Positions 4,489 through 28,004 of a stretch of DNA of 64,000 nucleotides are shown piece by piece. The position numbers and the translations under genes are program-made. Numbering within the stretch: position 1 is the first letter of the stretch; every line of letters starts with the position of its first letter. Source of the stretch: an uncultured Candidatus Saccharibacteria bacterium (GTDB lineage: Bacteria; Patescibacteriota; Doudnabacteria; UBA920); NCBI GenBank assembly GCA_964594755.1, contig CAZQMO010000003.1:2516-66515 (forward strand), in the 5' to 3' direction. The notes beneath the pieces are model-generated. The model did no database searches, was not told where the DNA came from, and saw nothing but the letters and a program-made list of their open reading frames with translations.

Positions 4489-5391
4489 TTAATTTTCTTT
4501 ATCATTAATGCCTTGCTTTTGTTTGAGCGCTTCGAGCTTGGCTTGGATAGCAGATTCATTTCGTTTGCGTTCGGCTTGAGATTTCATTTCGTCATCTAAG
4601 TTTACATTGGTTGGTTGATCAAACACTAACCCACCGCGCTTAGCAGTCCCTAAATCTAAATTCTTCTGAAGCGGAATTTTGAAAGTTGGAGATTCTACTT
4701 CAACGGTTTCTACTGGTTCTTGGTAAGATTGATCTTCACCTGCTTCCTCGATTGGGTCACCGTTAGCGTCAACCCCTAAACTTGCTTGTAGGCTCGCGAG
4801 ATCTTGCGCCTCCATATTTTCTGGTAGCAACTCCCACATTTTTACAACCTCATTGCAGTAATCCTGTAGCCGTATCAAATCTTTCAAAATAGTCTTCTGG
4901 GGTTGTGTTAAAACTTTTAAATCAGGATTGGTATTGAAATATTTCATTACAGCCAACACATCATAAGAATCTCGGCTAGTAGAATGCAGAGCATAGTGAT
5001 TCAACCAATTACTGATAGTTGGTGGAACTTTTTTATCACCTAACAACACCGGCTGTTCGCCAAGCAATTCCTGACTATTGGTCAATAACGCAGGGATTTG
5101 ACCACACAAAGCAACCGCATCTGGTACATAATCATATTGCTCAACAAAGTCCTTTAATTTATCTGCCAATGAATAATCTGGGAGTCGGTACGCCACTAAA
5201 ATTGATTGCGATAGCAAAGAATTTACAGCTTCTACAGTAAGACTATTGAGACGAATATACATGAGCTGTAATCGATTCTCATCTGATAATGAAGGGGTTT
5301 GCTTATCAGCTGCTAACAACTCAGTAGCCAGCGAATAATCCTGCGCGCGTAAAGCTTCATCAACTAATTGTGGGGTGATCATAATACTCAT
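4489..5391 (-). CDS. hypothetical cytoplasmic protein, T4SS-cluster associated
   Basis: 300-aa ORF with no TM segments, tightly packed between the VirB6-like gene and the proline-rich gene. Confidence 0.5.
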   Translation of the reverse strand: MSIMITPQLVDEALRAQDYSLATELLAADKQTPSLSDENRLQLMYIRLNSLTVEAVNSLLSQSILVAYRLPDYSLADKLKDFVEQYDYVPDAVALCGQIPALLTNSQELLGEQPVLLGDKKVPPTISNWLNHYALHSTSRDSYDVLAVMKYFNTNPDLKVLTQPQKTILKDLIRLQDYCNEVVKMWELLPENMEAQDLASLQASLGVDANGDPIEEAGEDQSYQEPVETVEVESPTFKIPLQKNLDLGTAKRGGLVFDQPTNVNLDDEMKSQAERKRNESAIQAKLEALKQKQGINDKEN

Positions 5392-5393
5392 AA

Positions 5394-8300
5394 CTAGGCG
5401 GTTCCTGCTGCCTTCTTGAGGGCATCCACTACGTTTTTATCAAAAGCTTTGCTCATTACGTTCTTACCAGCCATCTTTTGTTCATGTAAATCTAACAAAT
5501 CAGATGCTGTTTTTGAACTCATACGTTCACTAACTCGTTTGAGCTGATCAGGATTCTTTGCCATCTTATGAATTTCTTCTTCTTCTCCTCGCAAGAATTC
5601 TTTCTGACCAGTATTAGTTTCGCGAAACAATTCACCTGATTTCTTTTCCCAAACTTTTTTCTTACTAGCAGACTTTGCCAATAAGGTTTCTTGTCGTTCT
5701 TTAGTGTTCCAATTTATCACCCCTTCGGAATTAACCGTTGTAGCGTGTCCTACTGCTCTGTTTCCATTTTGCAAATTCAAGCTTGAGAGTTCAGAAGCAA
5801 CCTGATTCCTTACAACCACTGGAGAACCTTTGAATTTCTCTGCCATAAACTTCTTAAAGTCATCAAGGTTATTCTTATACCCTTCGGCTGTCAGCAGTTT
5901 GTCGAAATTACCTGACTTGGACATCTGCTTAGCAATCGCTGAGGCCAAAGCAGTGTTATTTTTGGATATAGCAGTTTTAAACGCAGCAATTTGCGCTTCT
6001 GGATCATCAATACCATCCAATTTTTTGATTTCTTCATTCTCTTTAGCCATCCTTGCTGCCCTACCTTCAACCGTCTCTGGCCATTCTCGTTGTGAAATAA
6101 CCTTAGACATACCAGCTTCCACTTTCGCTCGATCGTCTTCATCCCACTTACTAATTTGGTTCTTTGACCTCAGGGCATCATCACTCTTTAATTGACCTTC
6201 TAGTTCATCAATATCGGCTTTAACATCTTTAGCTATCAAAGTTAACACACCTTTAGCTGTTCCCGAACTACCCAAACTAAATACAGTCCCATCTTCCGCA
6301 TCAGGTGGTAATTTAGCAAGTTCATCTTCCACATGCTTTTGAACCTTTCTACGGTCAACTCGGTCAGCCTCACTTTTTTCTTGAATATCTGTAATTTTCT
6401 TCTCTAATTCCGCCGCTTTTCCGGTTTGTCCTTTAGCCAAAGCCTTAGAACGTTGTTCTTCCAATGGAGCAATTGCCTCTACTTCTTCCTTGTCAATTCG
6501 TTCCAAATCTTTATCAATATTATTTCTAAACAACTCGGCTTGTTTCTTGGTAATAAATTTGTTATCAGGAACTATTAAACCAGCATTAATATCTCTCAAA
6601 TCCTCTTGTTGATCAGCTATCTTGTCTCTTATGTCCGTTCGTTCATTATCAGTAAGCATTTCTCCAAATATCGCTTGTCTTGCCCTCATCGCTGCTGCGG
6701 TATTGCCAGTCAATTTATAACCCAGCATTTTCATAGCCATCTTTTTGTTCGCACCAACATTCCCAGCAAACTCTTCCAGGTCACCTCTACCCTTAGCAAT
6801 TGTCTCAAGTTGTTTCTTTTTTGGTTGGGTGAATAATTTATCTCGCAAAGCTTTAGCAGTTGCTGTTGGCTGAGCCACTGCAGAAATGGTGTTAGCTAGT
6901 TTTGGACGATCTTTAACGTATTTTGACTCGAGTGCCCCGGCCGCCGCAGAATCCCTAGCATAACGGCCCAAACCCTTGGCACCACGCCAAGGATATTCGA
7001 AAGCTTTCTTAAATCCAGTTTGAGCTGCGTCCACAATTTTTTGGGAACCATAACCACCAAACTTCAAAGCAAATTGCATGCCGGCAAACATAAACACTAA
7101 TACCAAAAAATGTGACAACACTGTGGTTGCAAAACTCACCACACCTTCACCCAAGTTAGACACAGGGATTAACCCGCCTAACACAAACTTGGTAGTTCCG
7201 CCTGTATCTACAGTTTGACCAGTTGCTGCTGACATGTTTACTGCCAGCAAGGCAGCTATGTTCAAGAAGAAAGCCATAATCGGCACAGCAAAAGAATACT
7301 TTATAAACTCATTCCACCACTTTCCGGTATACTCTTGTGTCTTAGGTAGAATACTTGCCACATAAGCCAATGGTGAAATCATGTATAACAACCACAGAGC
7401 CACAAGCCGGACCACTAAAAACGCAATTAATGCCACAAAAGCAAAGAAAGCAGCAACCGCCAATATCAACAAGATAATTGCTTTTGGTAAATCACTCGCC
7501 AAACCAGTCGGGGTGTAATTTTTTTGTTCATCAGTTAATTTAAAGTCGTCAGGATTAGCGCCCTCAACTCCACGGAAAGTCTGAATCGGATCAACCATGA
7601 GCTTAAAACCAAGAGTCTCAATAACTTTCGTATTTCCCGGTAAAAACTGAGATTGTAATGTATCAGCGATCCCAACCACAGCCTGACCTATCACTAAACT
7701 AAAATTCACTAATAACGCCGCAAGGATTAACCTGAGAATAAATGTTCGGCTTTTAGCTGCATCTTCTAATTGGAAAATTGTTCTCAAACCAATCCATAAC
7801 AAGGCAACTATAAACAAAATATTAGAAACGTTACGTAGGATTATCCAGCCTGGATAAATAAAATTAACAAATCCATCCTGATACGGCCGCACTTTTATCA
7901 ATGCTACGATAACTGGGACCAAAATTACCGAGAAAATATAATAAATAAAACTAGTTATCAGTAAGACAACATAAGCAATCACCTGGCGAAGGAAATCAAA
8001 CAATGAACTCGTAAGACTATTTTGATTTGCCTCAACATTTCCTTGAACGGATGGAGCAAAATCAGGAGAAACTGCACCCGGAGGACCGACCGCAGCATCA
8101 AATCTAATCTCTCTGTTTAAGGCAAAGGCATCACCAGTAGGAATATATGTAAAATTGGTCGTACTATCACCAACCGAAATTTTATTACTAAAATACAAAT
8201 ACAATGTGTTTATGGCTGTATCCGGAACTGGTACAGGTTCTCCGCCATTAGCCGCTCTTAACACTGCACTAGCACTGGTTGGTTCGAATAAACCACCAAA

Positions 8301-8750
8301 ACCTATAACTTTCCCGCTTGAATCAGTAATTTGCTTGGCTGTGTCTGAAAGTGTTGCTGATGACCAAGCTACAACAGTAGCTCGACAAAAACCAGCCAAG
8401 CCACAAACATATAAATTCAATTCAGTGCTAATCTTTAAATTATTACTAGCCACACAAGCTTCAAGCATGGCCGGGTCAGTAAAGTCGGTAATTTTAATGC
8501 CTAGTTGAAAAACTTGAGTCGGATGAATTGCTGTATTCCTTGAGGGTTCAAACGCATAATCAGCCTTAACATTACTATTTGTAATTTTTGTTAAATCACA
8601 TGTTCCCGTTGTAGATGTCGGAGTTGGACTAGGAGTCGGTGTTGGTGACTGCGCCAATGCCAATGAGGGGACAAACAAAACAGCAAGCAAAATTGCCAGC
8701 GCAATTCGCTTGCTATAAATCTTAAGGTTTTTTCCTAGAAAATAAGACAA
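5394..8750 (-). CDS. VirB6/TrbL-like polytopic membrane protein with long C-terminal charged extension
   Basis: 1118 aa. Signal peptide (ALAILLAVLFVPSLALA), a PTPTPSPTPT linker and a roughly 200-aa extracytoplasmic domain. Several TM helices follow around residues 260-560, then about 550 aa of K/E/D-rich coiled-coil-like sequence. This architecture matches extended VirB6 homologues. The VirB6 assignment is inferred from architecture and from context next to virB4. Confidence 0.5.
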   Translation of the reverse strand: MSYFLGKNLKIYSKRIALAILLAVLFVPSLALAQSPTPTPSPTPTSTTGTCDLTKITNSNVKADYAFEPSRNTAIHPTQVFQLGIKITDFTDPAMLEACVASNNLKISTELNLYVCGLAGFCRATVVAWSSATLSDTAKQITDSSGKVIGFGGLFEPTSASAVLRAANGGEPVPVPDTAINTLYLYFSNKISVGDSTTNFTYIPTGDAFALNREIRFDAAVGPPGAVSPDFAPSVQGNVEANQNSLTSSLFDFLRQVIAYVVLLITSFIYYIFSVILVPVIVALIKVRPYQDGFVNFIYPGWIILRNVSNILFIVALLWIGLRTIFQLEDAAKSRTFILRLILAALLVNFSLVIGQAVVGIADTLQSQFLPGNTKVIETLGFKLMVDPIQTFRGVEGANPDDFKLTDEQKNYTPTGLASDLPKAIILLILAVAAFFAFVALIAFLVVRLVALWLLYMISPLAYVASILPKTQEYTGKWWNEFIKYSFAVPIMAFFLNIAALLAVNMSAATGQTVDTGGTTKFVLGGLIPVSNLGEGVVSFATTVLSHFLVLVFMFAGMQFALKFGGYGSQKIVDAAQTGFKKAFEYPWRGAKGLGRYARDSAAAGALESKYVKDRPKLANTISAVAQPTATAKALRDKLFTQPKKKQLETIAKGRGDLEEFAGNVGANKKMAMKMLGYKLTGNTAAAMRARQAIFGEMLTDNERTDIRDKIADQQEDLRDINAGLIVPDNKFITKKQAELFRNNIDKDLERIDKEEVEAIAPLEEQRSKALAKGQTGKAAELEKKITDIQEKSEADRVDRRKVQKHVEDELAKLPPDAEDGTVFSLGSSGTAKGVLTLIAKDVKADIDELEGQLKSDDALRSKNQISKWDEDDRAKVEAGMSKVISQREWPETVEGRAARMAKENEEIKKLDGIDDPEAQIAAFKTAISKNNTALASAIAKQMSKSGNFDKLLTAEGYKNNLDDFKKFMAEKFKGSPVVVRNQVASELSSLNLQNGNRAVGHATTVNSEGVINWNTKERQETLLAKSASKKKVWEKKSGELFRETNTGQKEFLRGEEEEIHKMAKNPDQLKRVSERMSSKTASDLLDLHEQKMAGKNVMSKAFDKNVVDALKKAAGTA

Positions 8751-8922
8751 AAATTTATAAAAATTTGATATTTGTTTCAGCCAACATTCCTTGGCAAAAT
8801 TTCATCCACAACCGCTATAACTTGTAATAATTATACCACATAGGCCTCCCAAACTCCAAGAAGTTTTAGACTACTAAAAAACTGCCTTCAGCGTTAGCCG
8901 AAAGGCAGTTTTGGATAAGTTA

Positions 8923-10857
8923 TTATCTGATTTGTAGTGGCTGGCGAGCCTCACCGCGAGGATTAAAGTTCGTAGTCAAAACGCCGCTTACCGTGCCTTG
9001 TACAAAGTATGCACCTGTAACAGTACTCAGGATTCTCGCGCCGTCACCATCACGTACAGACAGCTCTACCTCCCAGCGCACAGTTTTATTTTGTGCAGTA
9101 AAGTTATATTTCAAAATAGTACTAGCAGACAAATTGCTTATCGACTCATTGACAATTGCTTGCCCTGAATCACGATCGCGAATGACGATACGGTTTGGAG
9201 CTTCGCGACCAGCATTAAGGTGTCCACTTAAATCAATATTGAAAGTATATTGTTGTCCCGGACGCACATCGGAAATTTTTTCATTACTGCCAGCTGGAGT
9301 CATATAGACATTGACCCATTGATCGCCAAACTCTTGGCCAGTACCGGAACCAGAGTTTCCAATAATCGCTGGTACTGAGGCGATGCCCAGACCTAAGGCT
9401 TGCAGGCCGCCTTCTTTAAGAACTTTTGACCCGCTCTTTCCGCCTGTGAGCAAATTTGTCAAAAAGTTTCCGGTCAAATCAGCAAGGAAATTTGCGTAAA
9501 ATGGTAAGTTATCTGTCTGCAAAGAACTGCCTTGATCAAAATGCTGCTTAAGATAATCCTGGATAGAACCAGATACGAACTTCGCTGGTGAATCAATGGC
9601 TTCACAAATATCAATCACTGGGCTATCTACTTCGGAAGGCAGGTTGGCTAGCTTTTGCTCTGCTGCTTCGTAAGCAGCCTGCGCTTTGGCAAATTCTGCT
9701 TCATTGGTTTGCCCCGCTGCCAACGCATCGGTCATACGAACTACAACCGCCAAAGCTGCATCACGCTCGCTCACAGCGCTGTCAATTACCGAATCAATTT
9801 GCGCTTGCTGGCTCAACGAGCCTCCACAGTTGCGTGGCGGCGCATAACCTTCGCTCTGGCTAATTTCTGCCTGAGCAGTCTTTTGAGCCTCTGCTTTAAT
9901 CTTAGAAGAGGTATCTAAAGCATTGAGATATCTAAACATCGGGCTGGCCTGCTCATTACCATAAGAGGCTAAGCAATTAAGGGAAGACGCATTCGTTGCG
10001 TCTAATTGACCAGCACTACCACACTGAGCAACCACATACTCCTTAGCTTGCTGGTTGGCAAATGCCGCAGCTACGCGGGCCTTTTGTGGTGTTTTTTCAC
10101 TCTGAATCAGCGAGCGCATCATCATTTGGGTGCGAGCATCACCTTCAAAATTCTGATTAATGTACTTCATGGCGTAAACCTGTGTTGCCAAAGCATCGCC
10201 ATAAGCCAGATAGTCGTCAATCTTGTATTCGTTCATTAACTCGTTCACGACTTTAGTAGTGAGGCTTTTGTTTAAATTCAGTACAAGCTTTACCATGAAT
10301 GCCTTCATGATATCTTTAGCACTAGCGTTTTGCTGTTCACTCAAACTCTGAATTTGCTCACGAAGAGAATTACTAATCTTGGTAAACTTATCCTGTTCGC
10401 GAGAAACCTCATTAGAAATCTCAAAAGTCGTGCCAGGAATTGCACTTAGTGCCTCTACATATGTGTCCACACAACTTTTAGCAGCTGTGGCCTTAGCCAA
10501 TTTGGCGTTAACTTTTGTGAACTCAAATGGGCTACCGCCGATCACATTCAAAGTTGCGGAAGAAGTTGCATCAAGGTAACTATCCAAGGAATCTGCTGTT
10601 TGCAATGAGGTTAATAATGCAAGACAAGGCGCGCCAATACCGGCGCGAGCTAAATTAACAGTCGTCGCTCCTATCCCAGGGACACCACTAACCACAGCCG
10701 AGCTGGTTGTAGCTGTCAAAATCCCAGTGACCAAAGCGGTAGCGGCAGGTCCAAATTCTACAACAAATTGCGCTTCTGCTTTCTTAACAGGAAAATTACT
10801 CACAACGATAGTGAGTAAAATTAGCAAGCTTGTAATTATAGTAAAAACTTTCTTCAT
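8923..10857 (-). CDS. secreted protein of unknown function (T4SS cluster)
   Basis: 644 aa with an N-terminal signal peptide (MKKVFTIITSLLILLTIVVSNFPVKKAEA). A/Q-rich helical central region and a beta-rich C-terminal domain. Followed by an intrinsic terminator at 8884..8915. Confidence 0.6.
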   Translation of the reverse strand: MKKVFTIITSLLILLTIVVSNFPVKKAEAQFVVEFGPAATALVTGILTATTSSAVVSGVPGIGATTVNLARAGIGAPCLALLTSLQTADSLDSYLDATSSATLNVIGGSPFEFTKVNAKLAKATAAKSCVDTYVEALSAIPGTTFEISNEVSREQDKFTKISNSLREQIQSLSEQQNASAKDIMKAFMVKLVLNLNKSLTTKVVNELMNEYKIDDYLAYGDALATQVYAMKYINQNFEGDARTQMMMRSLIQSEKTPQKARVAAAFANQQAKEYVVAQCGSAGQLDATNASSLNCLASYGNEQASPMFRYLNALDTSSKIKAEAQKTAQAEISQSEGYAPPRNCGGSLSQQAQIDSVIDSAVSERDAALAVVVRMTDALAAGQTNEAEFAKAQAAYEAAEQKLANLPSEVDSPVIDICEAIDSPAKFVSGSIQDYLKQHFDQGSSLQTDNLPFYANFLADLTGNFLTNLLTGGKSGSKVLKEGGLQALGLGIASVPAIIGNSGSGTGQEFGDQWVNVYMTPAGSNEKISDVRPGQQYTFNIDLSGHLNAGREAPNRIVIRDRDSGQAIVNESISNLSASTILKYNFTAQNKTVRWEVELSVRDGDGARILSTVTGAYFVQGTVSGVLTTNFNPRGEARQPLQIR

Positions 10858-25451: not shown

Positions 25452-25552
25452 AAGCTAAATTATAGCTTTTTTATTAGAGAAATAAAAGTTGCTTCAAATT
25501 TGAGTTTTTCTTGGAATGGATTTGATAACTATTATGCCAAGCTATACGCAGT

Positions 25553-25626
25553 GGGGCGGGCTCATCGGTATGACGAAGCGGATCGTCACCCCTTTGCAGC
25601 GGGTTCGACTCCCGTCCGCTCCACCA
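25553..25626 (+). ncRNA. tRNA-like element resembling a tmRNA tRNA-like domain without the mRNA-like domain
   Basis: GGGGCGG...CCGCTCC-A-CCA forms a 7-bp acceptor stem with G3:U70 and discriminator A73 (alanine identity elements). T-arm is GCGGG-TTCGACT-CCCGT. The D-loop analogue GGTATGACG and the 3' end are nearly identical to E. coli and local tmRNA termini. The anticodon arm is replaced by a hairpin TGACGA-agcgga-TCGTCA with a 6-nt loop. Only 74 nt long. Confidence 0.5.
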
Positions 25627-25701
25627 CACTTGAAAAGGCGTTCATATGCATGGTATGATGTGCATGACGATCCGCTTCTCAAAATCTTACCGAGAGCCTG
25701 T

Positions 25702-25730
25702 AAAAAGCCGCCATGAGGCGGCTTTTGCTT
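25702..25730 (+). terminator. intrinsic terminator
   Basis: aaaaAGCCGCCatgaGGCGGCTtttgctttt. Confidence 0.6.
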
Positions 25731-25733
25731 TTC

Positions 25734-25742
25734 TGATATAAT
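25734..25742 (+). promoter_or_regulatory. extended -10 promoter (TGaTATAAT) giving a probable leaderless smpB mRNA
   Basis: TGnTATAAT at 25734..25742 ends 6 nt before the smpB ATG at 25749. No SD is possible at that distance. Confidence 0.35.
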
Positions 25743-25748
25743 AGACAT

Positions 25749-26186
25749 ATGAAATCTTTAGCCCAGAACAAGCGAGCCAAATTCGACTACGACATCAAAG
25801 ATACTTTTGATGCCGGTTTAATATTGGAAGGGCGAGAGGTTAAATCGGCAAAGGAAGGCAATATCTCGCTAGCCGGAAGCTATGTGAAAGTGTCAGCTAC
25901 TGGCGCTAGCTTAGTGAATGCCCACATTGGCCCTTATAAGTATGCGCCACAAGAAGGTTATGAACCAACCCAAAGCCGCAAGTTGTTGTTGAATAAGCGC
26001 GAACTTAATCAACTCCTAGGTAAAGAAAAAGGCACCGTAATTATTCCGCTAGAAATTTTCATTGGTCCTCGCAATCTGGTAAAGCTAAAAATCGGAGTTG
26101 GCCGCGGCCGCAAGAAAACCGACAAGCGCGAGTACATTAAAGAGCGCGATACCAAGCGCGAAGCCCGTAAGGCCACCGACCGATAA
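25749..26186 (+). CDS. smpB: SsrA-binding protein SmpB
   Basis: 145 aa. N-terminus LAQNKRAKFDY and a basic C-terminal tail (GRGRKKTDKREYIKERD) typical of SmpB. Confidence 0.9.
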   Translation: MKSLAQNKRAKFDYDIKDTFDAGLILEGREVKSAKEGNISLAGSYVKVSATGASLVNAHIGPYKYAPQEGYEPTQSRKLLLNKRELNQLLGKEKGTVIIPLEIFIGPRNLVKLKIGVGRGRKKTDKREYIKERDTKREARKATDR

Positions 26187-27583: not shown

Positions 27584-27612
27584 TTGACAAAACCCTTATT
27601 TTACCGTACAAT
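27584..27612 (+). promoter_or_regulatory. sigma70-type promoter for ssrA
   Basis: TTGACA (27584..27589), a 17-nt spacer, then TACAAT (27607..27612). The tmRNA 5' end lies 9 nt downstream. Confidence 0.6.
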
Positions 27613-27621
27613 ATTGGCTAC

Positions 27622-28004
27622 CGGGGATGCCGGATTTTGACAGAACTTTGACATCATTTCATATACAAGCCGAGCCAGCTTGCAAGCTCGTAAATCTTAC
27701 AAGCATTCATACGTGCTAACGCATGGAACAAGGTCGTAGCAGCATTTTCTGCTGACTACGCACCTGCTGTAGCCTAACTTAGGTGAAAGCGCAGTCCTGT
27801 TGTCTACTCCGGCCACAGAGTCACTGCTTTATTAGGAGTTATAGCTGCGTCGTTTGATTAACGCGACTCAGCCGAATAGTTGTTAATCAACCTTTAGTTT
27901 AGTTGTCCGTTGTTAGACTAAAGGCACTTAAACGGACTAAGCTTGTGACCAATGAGATGGTGAACCAGTTTTGGACGCGGGTTTAACTCCCGCCATCTCC
28001 ACCA
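27622..28004 (+). ncRNA. ssrA: transfer-messenger RNA (tmRNA)
   Basis: 5' GGGGATG pairs with 3' CATCTCC-A-CCA, including G3:U70. The 3' end GGACGCGGGTTTAACTCCCGCCATCTCCACCA is nearly identical to E. coli tmRNA. An internal tag-like frame ends ...AAFSADYAPAVA-TAA. Flanked by a consensus promoter and a terminator. Confidence 0.85.

Follow-up and report, generated by a model that had tools for sequence, protein, structure and literature searches.

Bacterial tRNA mimics and the locus under study

To our knowledge, only few bacterial tRNA mimics have a known role, namely tmRNA, YrlA and a handful of pseudo-tRNAs. Here we describe a locus at positions 25511-25726 (+ strand) of a 64,000-nt stretch of DNA from an uncultured Candidatus Saccharibacteria bacterium, referred to as the window, in which a tRNA-like element precedes the gene smpB. 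An earlier reading of the same stretch, made from its letters alone and called here the sequence-only reading, had taken the element for a mini-tmRNA. We conclude that it represents an RNA family not described before, neither a second tmRNA nor a piece of smpB, and that the region is an autonomous non-coding RNA locus lying outside the smpB unit. In our preferred reading, to which we give a probability of roughly 55%, the locus encodes an alanine-type tRNA mimic together with its own cognate antisense RNA, which serves as an off-switch. No entry or description for such an RNA family was found in Rfam 15, with ARAGORN or in the literature searched, and the arrangement of a bacterial tRNA mimic with a matched antisense partner is likewise absent from Rfam 15 and from that literature.

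The tRNA-like domain of tmRNA, with which the ORF-less mitochondrial ssrA RNA of jakobids is grouped, provides the closest comparison for the tRNA-like part. The shared features are a 7-bp acceptor stem with G3·U70, A73 and CCA, and a canonical T arm; tmRNA is also the best sub-threshold Rfam match, and the element is often found near smpB. tmRNA has neither a D stem nor an anticodon-type arm, and SmpB fills that space. The element, in contrast, carries both a D hairpin and a long arm at its centre, each conserved and covarying. It has no helix P2, no pseudoknots and no tag frame, with about 35 nt between the D hairpin and the T arm. Moreover, it has its own terminator and a predicted promoter of its own, and it coexists with a normal tmRNA.

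Rfam was searched at gathering and at E-value thresholds, and the element gave only sub-threshold matches of the tmRNA, permuted-tmRNA, YrlA, mascRNA and terminator types. The tmRNA model (RF00023) scored 16.9-29.7 bits against a gathering score of 47. The permuted two-piece tmRNA model (RF04321) scored 10.6-17.2 bits against 47, and its match takes the terminator as the partner strand. The comparison with tmRNA and tRNA models that the sequence-only reading had called for thus returned tmRNA below threshold and no tRNA at the gathering score. ARAGORN, run on the window and on 22 loci, never called the element, only the real tmRNA. In the window the latter occupies 27623-28004 (115.6 bits), and its termini (GGGGATG/CATCTCC) and T loop (TTTAACT) agree with the earlier statement that the element is not a copy of it. 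A two-piece tmRNA, consisting of the mimic and a downstream tag RNA, was considered and rejected: the UAA before the terminator is conserved, whereas the frames upstream are not.

With tRNA-Ala and the alanine minihelix, the element has in common the acceptor identity set, the T arm, the cloverleaf and the encoded CCA; the loci retrieved for comparison contained no tRNA-Ala gene. It differs from them by the lack of an alanine anticodon, a longer central stem, C37, a tiny D loop and the absence of U8, and it is undetected by tRNA finders. The canonical tRNA core has U8, A14, a D loop of 7-11 nt and a variable region of at least 4 nt, compared with G8, 3-5 nt and 2-4 nt here. In a canonical anticodon arm, a stem of 5 bp closes a loop of 7 nt that carries U33 and, at position 37, a purine; the element has about eight layers, C37 and, in some copies, 9-nt loops. 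The canonical tRNA model (RF00005) gave no match in the window at its gathering score, and ARAGORN made no call at any of the nine copies presented below; the claim that the element is not a canonical tRNA therefore stands.

The resemblance to the bacterial Y RNA YrlA (RF02553) concerns a long-range fold described below, in which a long stem made of distant segments carries a multi-helix junction that includes the T arm. However, the element scores 16 bits against a threshold of 69, and its acceptor stem with CCA is complete and linear, a feature absent in YrlA. No Rsr (Ro/TROVE) gene was found among the window neighbours or in the 20-kb gene tables of the relatives.

IS10 RNA-OUT/RNA-IN and hok/Sok are antisense pairs in which pairing starts by contact between a loop and a 5′ end. 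The present locus is similar in that a 5′ single strand faces a putative U-turn loop with its adjoining stem strand, and the pairing can be extended to a duplex of more than 30 bp. The antisense promoter is predicted to be strong, and exact complementarity is kept by compensatory change. However, both partners are here located on the + strand as an inverted repeat, and not on opposite strands, and the separate antisense transcript is only predicted from an internal promoter. The target is a tRNA mimic instead of an mRNA, and no protein gene is controlled. The nearest concept is tRNA-Other of Bacillus cereus, a bacterial tRNA-like RNA classed as a pseudo-tRNA, which has regulatory effects and presumably does not decode (PMC3399842). 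Unlike the element, it is close to a canonical tRNA and possesses an anticodon loop, it does not belong to the alanine type, and no antisense partner is co-encoded with it (PMC3399842).

A conserved tRNA-like 5′ module

Nine full copies were compared: the window copy and those of L003, L006, L008, L081, L084, L086, L095 and L098. The organism belongs to the candidate phyla radiation, and its relatives are metagenome-assembled genomes labelled Saccharibacteria or Doudnabacteria. The copies of L003, L006 and L008 were detected upstream of smpB, those of L081, L084 and L086 (metagenome contigs) by a DNA pattern derived from the T arm, the CCA and the box that follows it, and those of L095 and L098 via a look-up of SmpB homologues. 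A covariance model trained on seven copies gave 118-181 bits for all nine and less than 28 bits for everything else. With its filters off, it found a single copy within the window. Frequencies given below refer to these nine copies unless stated otherwise.

The tRNA-like RNA is located at 25553-25626 (+ strand) and was delimited by sequence, covariation and folding. It is 74 nt long in the window and 71-74 nt among the copies, and ends with CCA. The acceptor stem is formed by GGGGCGG (25553-25559) and CCGCTCC (25616-25622) and contains the G3·U70 wobble; it is followed by A73 (25623) and by CCA (25624-25626). These parts, together with the T arm, lie exactly where the sequence-only reading had placed them. 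Across the alignment, 97% of acceptor-stem cells are paired. The alanine identity set proposed earlier (G3·U70, A73 and encoded CCA) is invariant in the nine copies, while the adjacent 4:69 pair switches from G-C in five copies to C-G in four. G3·U70 is the main identity element of alanyl-tRNA synthetase (AlaRS), and the anticodon is not needed for alanylation. Judging from these nucleotides, the mimic is probably alanine-chargeable; among the roles listed by the sequence-only reading, both a chargeable RNA and a processing substrate are plausible.

The T arm (GCGGG-TTCGACT-CCCGT, 25599-25615, + strand) is 100% paired, with compensatory changes in three of its five pairs and a TTCRAnn loop in every copy. 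The D-like hairpin (TCAT-CGGT-ATGA, 25562-25573, + strand) carries an invariant GG (25567-25568 in the window) and is predicted in eight of the nine copies. Its stems vary yet remain paired: TCAT/ATGA, TCAT/ATGG, GGTT/AACC, CCGA/TCGG, GGCA/TGCC, GACA/TGTC, CCAA/TTGG and ATC/GAT. The tmRNA-like D-loop analogue GGTATGACG of the sequence-only reading is specific to the window; what is conserved in its place is this hairpin with its GG.

The central arm (25574-25596, + strand) was defined by covariation. Its stem, 25574-25581 with 25589-25596, contains one internal mismatch and is paired in 73% of cells, with a covariation of 0.61 versus 0.24 in shuffles. The hairpin TGACGA-AGCGGA-TCGTCA, proposed earlier for this region, does form in the minimum-energy fold of the 74-mer, but it is peculiar to the window and is not the conserved stem. 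The central loop is AUCGUCA (25582-25588), 7 nt long in the window and 7-9 nt among the copies, its size hinging on a weak closing pair. It follows the pattern N-U-Y-R-N-C-A, in which U, C and A are invariant. U-N-R, known as a U-turn motif (YUNR/UNR) from the recognition loops of antisense systems, occurs in all nine loops and is preceded by a pyrimidine in only two of them. This loop is not an anticodon loop and resembles one only in its U. The triplets found at the anticodon position (CGU, CAC, UAC, UAU, UGU, UGA, CGA and AAU) never include an alanine anticodon, position 37 is a C, and the stem of about eight layers has about three too many for decoding.

Considering all the cloverleaf arms, 93% of cells are paired, 14 pairs show double changes and none of 500 shuffles matches this result. 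When the mimic is folded in isolation, the four-arm cloverleaf is the minimum-energy structure in seven copies; in the remaining two it lies at most 1.3 kcal/mol above the minimum. RNAalifold applied to the 5′ module alone predicted the acceptor, central and T arms. These comparative data support a genuine tRNA-like module under selection. A protein-coding reading was also examined and rejected: the overlapping ORFs (66 and 68 aa) have no Pfam match, and the stems covary.

A matched antisense segment excludes the cloverleaf

The 14-nt arms 25575-25588 and 25665-25678 are 100% complementary. This long-range complementarity, already noticed in the sequence-only reading, is perfect and covarying, and by this comparison real and functional. 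The antisense core (25666-25678, + strand) forms a perfect inverted repeat of 13 nt with 25575-25587, or of 14 nt if the T25665-A25588 pair is included. In each copy, 13-16 nt starting with G are exactly complementary to the central arm and its loop. In the 13-bp core, 91% of cells are paired and both sides are changed in 11 of the 13 pairs. The covariation is 0.81 versus 0.22, none of 500 shuffles reaches the score, and controls in which the segments were slid gave 28-47% pairing. Among the non-Watson-Crick positions in the 13-16-bp cores, G·U occurs four times and A·C, A·A and A·G once each. Since these exceptions are mostly G·U on the + strand, pairing of the + strand RNA is favoured over a DNA palindrome. 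A search of the 64,000-nt window revealed no further occurrence of the 14-mer arm with fewer than three mismatches.

The exact helix proposed earlier is correct over its 14 nt, but it is not the full extent of the pairing, which continues imperfectly to about 25698. In minimum-energy folds and duplex structures, the extended segment 25679-25698 (+ strand) pairs with the D hairpin as well as with nucleotides 5-9 of the mimic, and so with part of the 5′ acceptor strand. In relatives this segment also forms a hairpin of its own. RNAalifold on the full alignment predicted the long-range helix, and it also paired columns 15-17 with 133-135 and 21-22 with 128-129. For the full-length RNA, the long-range form is the minimum-energy fold in all nine copies and lies 9.7-20.9 kcal/mol below the enforced cloverleaf; the z-score of the full-length fold in the window is −5.6. 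At the level of the alignment, both the cloverleaf and the long-range helix are thus shown to be under selection, and the two are mutually exclusive.

Duplex energies between the 5′ module and the predicted 3′ RNA were calculated for all combinations of seven copies. Cognate pairs averaged −46 kcal/mol and non-cognate pairs −32 kcal/mol, and the cognate partner was the best in every row of the matrix. The recognition sequence is therefore specific to each lineage, in a locus that is otherwise well conserved.

Predicted promoters and terminator

Upstream of the mimic lies a promoter-like block, P1 (TTGGAA-16 nt-TATGCC, 25511-25538, + strand), which ends 14 nt before G1 and was recognised by its conserved spacing. 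A block TTTACn-16-TATGYA is found at a fixed distance from G1 in seven to eight of the copies, and a U precedes G1 at position −1 in eight. From this layout, P1 would be the weaker promoter of the mimic itself, with the 5′ end of the mimic processed by RNase P.

A second promoter-like site, P2 (25630-25659, + strand), was found inside the locus by a promoter scan. It consists of a −35 box TTGAAA (25630-25635), an 18-nt spacer and an extended −10 box TGgTATGAT (25651-25659), and with 10 of 12 consensus matches plus the TG motif it is a near-consensus sigma-70 site. The copies share a −35 box TTGAAA (TTGCAA in one of them) and, after a spacer of 17-18 nt, a −10 box TAnnAT, usually preceded by TG; such a pattern of conservation is the one expected of a promoter. 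The predicted +1 (25666), separated from the −10 box by six bases, coincides with the first complementary base in all nine copies, and in all copies examined with RNAduplex the pairing begins with the first base of the predicted P2 RNA. On these grounds P2 is expected to work as a promoter. The −10 box is enclosed in a hairpin, ATGCAT-GGTATGAT-GTGCAT (25646-25665, + strand), which is 100% paired. Compensatory changes affect three of its six pairs, and the loop-closing pair is U·G in six of the nine copies; the −10 region is therefore also selected as + strand RNA.

The locus ends with an intrinsic terminator, AAAAGCCGCC-ATGA-GGCGGCTTTT (25703-25726, + strand), which was obtained by terminator prediction and is conserved, with 97% pairing and compensatory changes. 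The single transcription unit assumed by the sequence-only reading does end at this terminator, but the promoter-like site P2 lies inside it.

The −35 box of P2 also forms a hairpin, CCTT-GAAA-AAGG (25629-25638 and homologues), directly after the CCA, with a loop GAAA or GCAA, both of which are GNRA tetraloops. This hairpin could be a 3′-processing or docking element in read-through RNA. Further downstream, a consensus promoter TTGACA-17-TACAAT (window 27584-27622) ends 10 nt before the mature 5′ end of tmRNA; the organism thus uses standard sigma-70-type promoters.

A model for the mimic and its antisense partner

In our model, read-through transcripts would carry the antisense segment as a 3′ trailer acting in cis, and the segment would probably also act in trans, as a small RNA of about 60 nt transcribed from P2 and starting at 25666. 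Its 5′ end would dock on the bases shown by the putative U-turn loop, and the helix would then zip toward the 5′ end of the mimic, converting the cloverleaf into a duplex of 35-45 bp. Such a duplex should escape recognition by RNase P and AlaRS, and RNase III could cleave it. The mimic would be the effector, most likely in its alanylated form, and the antisense RNA a lineage-specific off-switch.

The element retains exactly the features required by AlaRS, drops the anticodon and brings its own antisense, all within a small system of about 175 nt. Charging of the mimic, if it occurs, would suggest that organisms with minimal genomes employ alanyl-RNA for purposes other than normal decoding. If the antisense RNA acts as predicted, the locus would be a compact natural case of a tRNA fold switched by strand invasion.

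Several observations weigh against this model. P1 is weak, departs from the consensus and was not reported by the promoter scan. The first acceptor pair is U1·C72 in one copy (L095). The D loop of 3-5 nt, the invariant G8 and the variable region of 2-4 nt mean that an L-shaped fold is not assured. As the −10 hairpin covaries with G·U pairs, the P2 "promoter" could be an RNA structure. Finally, only nine related sequences were available, so that the shuffle controls overstate significance.

The main rival takes up the last structural point and treats the whole transcript of about 175 nt as a one-piece structured RNA. Its functional form would be the long-range fold, in which the 5′ half and the 3′ segment build a long stem leading to a YrlA-like four-way junction with the T arm, the GNRA hairpin and the GGTATGAT-loop hairpin; the "promoter" would be RNA structure and the cloverleaf a folding intermediate. 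This explanation accounts for the long-range fold being the lowest in energy in every copy and the RNAalifold consensus, for the covariation with U·G pairs around the −10 box, for the GNRA loops after the CCA and for the end-to-end alignment of the YrlA model in the long-range topology. However, the YrlA score remains far below its threshold and no gene table contains a TROVE/Rsr gene. Moreover, conservation and covariation extend to the acceptor stem with its G3·U70, to A73 and to CCA, although these would be unpaired in the long-range fold. The conserved loop positions are exactly those of the −10 box, the −35 box and its spacing are kept, and the P2 +1 falls on the start of the complementarity throughout. 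We consider the one-piece RNA improbable, although it is the alternative that deserves most attention.

A further proposal builds on the mimic and its antisense partner and concerns what they might do together. They could constitute a protein-free two-RNA module in which the alanine-charged, anticodon-less mimic is the active agent and the antisense RNA, with its lineage-specific recognition over 13-16 nt, the antidote. Such an all-RNA toxin-antitoxin or addiction-like cassette would move in and out of intergenic slots such as that between argS and smpB. The mimic could be a dead-end substrate tying up AlaRS, EF-Tu, SmpB or stalled ribosomes, or it could be an alanine donor outside translation. 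The patchy distribution, the lineage-specific recognition sequence and the stronger predicted antisense promoter are indirect hints toward an RNA toxin-antitoxin system of type I or type VIII, in which growth is inhibited by one RNA, or by its product, and the other RNA neutralises it. We put this proposal forward as a speculation with a small chance of being right.

Genomic context and the relation to smpB

In the window, smpB (PF01668) starts with an ATG at 25749, 122 nt past the CCA, and six of the nine copies are located between divergently oriented argS and smpB. All six, however, come from searches around smpB, and the three copies obtained with the smpB-independent pattern are all elsewhere: the L081 copy is upstream of a CsoR-type repressor gene, the L084 copy adjoins dinB and the L086 copy lies between rpsT and a convergent NUDIX-polA pair. 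In the closest relatives (SmpB 88-97% identical), smpB and tmRNA are present, but the argS-smpB spacer lacks the element and contains either nothing or an ORF of 82-87 aa. Conservation upstream of smpB, which the sequence-only reading had proposed to check, is therefore true of six copies, but not of the other three nor of the closest relatives. smpB itself is preceded by TGaTATAAT, an extended −10 box that ends 6 nt upstream of the ATG and lies downstream of the terminator of the element (window 25734-25751), which suggests from the sequence that the smpB mRNA is leaderless or nearly so. The layout is alike in relatives, including those without the element (GGTAnAAT, 6 nt, ATG). The different contexts, the element's own terminator, the separate −10 box of smpB and the conserved upstream block together indicate that the element is an autonomous RNA locus.

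These data bear directly on the mini-tmRNA or SmpB-partner role initially proposed. In that explanation, an alanylated tRNA-like domain would bind SmpB, and EF-Tu as well; through this binding it would modulate trans-translation, compete with it or exert autoregulation on smpB. The position of six copies directly upstream of smpB, the identity set shared with tmRNA and the tmRNA model being the best Rfam match to the 74-mer (17-30 bits) speak in its favour. However, this score remains below the 47 bits required, the smpB-adjacent copies owe their detection to an smpB-centred search and the three independent ones lie beside other genes. Relatives with 88-97% identical SmpB and an intact tmRNA do without the element, and a strong terminator separates it from the −10 box of smpB. 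Moreover, the retained D hairpin and central arm occupy the place that SmpB takes on tmRNA, the "D-loop analogue" is not conserved, and a manual frame check found no conserved tag frame in either RNA. We regard a decoy or partner of SmpB as improbable, the more so in view of this genomic context.

A T-box-like element or attenuator for smpB was also examined and rejected. The terminator stem shows no covariation with the acceptor stem, as in L081, where a different terminator accompanies the same acceptor, and three copies have a different downstream gene or none in the same orientation.

A decoding tRNA or a DNA-level feature

We also considered a mistranslating decoding tRNA, charged with alanine via G3·U70 and reading Thr, Val, Ile or Ser codons. 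The cloverleaf fold and the encoded CCA are compatible with this possibility, and the central arm can be drawn with a 7-nt loop that has an invariant U at "U33" and A at "38". However, the central stem has about eight layers against the usual 5-6, the base at "position 37" is an invariant C and not a purine, and the D loop, G8 and variable region depart from the tRNA core as described above. Neither ARAGORN nor the Rfam tRNA model calls any copy. The "anticodon" differs among orthologous copies, a variability better explained by the antisense RNA because the antisense segment matches the triplet base for base. A decoding function is very unlikely.

Hardly more credible is a feature of the DNA itself. 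In this view the repeats would surround a decaying fragment of tRNA-Ala or tmRNA, either as parts of a promoter switch that can invert or as a quasipalindrome. Perfect 14-bp inverted repeats do flank a 76-bp segment containing the promoter, and template switching could keep the arms identical. However, the orientation is the same in all nine copies, even though the search pattern was confined to the segment, and the arm differences are mainly + strand G·U; on these two grounds an invertible switch was rejected. No recombinase is linked, and a truly decayed copy (L100) looks very different. Covariation is also seen in the stems of the acceptor, D, central and T arms, located outside the repeats or across them, and it excludes the relic option of the sequence-only reading.

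Distribution, a decayed copy and the variable argS-smpB slot

The decayed copy just mentioned is found at L100 9813-9938, and also in L101 and L102, at the same place. It aligns to the L095 copy with a score of 71 versus 34 ± 5 for shuffles. The T-arm and acceptor 3′ strand, the promoter box, the 3′ segment and the terminator still align, while the 5′ half of the tRNA-like part is gone. The distribution of the element is thus patchy, with evidence of loss provided by this relic. A BLAST search of plasmid and phage collections gave no match to the element, and a pattern scan of viral contigs gave 14 matches, all inside coding sequence, and no copy of the element.

The spacer between argS and smpB (window 25452-25748, and relatives) behaves as a variable slot that contains the element, a decayed copy, an ORF of 82-87 aa or nothing. 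Loci of this kind are L022, L002, L004, L088 and L090-L094 around 9690-9960, as well as L001, L096 and L099. The ORF comes with a promoter and a terminator of its own and matches no Pfam family. The content of the slot varies even among genomes whose SmpB proteins are 88-97% identical.

L096 (CP064996.1) is a complete genome in which, at 5168-9909, gene calling divides both ileS and argS into two ORFs; these may be frameshifted or split genes, or reflect sequencing errors. For L090 12210-12591 and L092 12218-12599, ARAGORN gives a short tmRNA tag, ESAVLKLTPA*, which is probably a frame mis-call because all other relatives share tags of the ANAWNKVVAAF... type. Serine recombinase genes are located just downstream of the tmRNA gene in L092 (12559-14175 and 17023-18449) and L098 (13096-14700), and L092 also carries a reverse transcriptase and bAvd pair of the diversity-generating retroelement type. 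These recombinase regions probably represent islands for which the 3′ end of ssrA served as the integration site.

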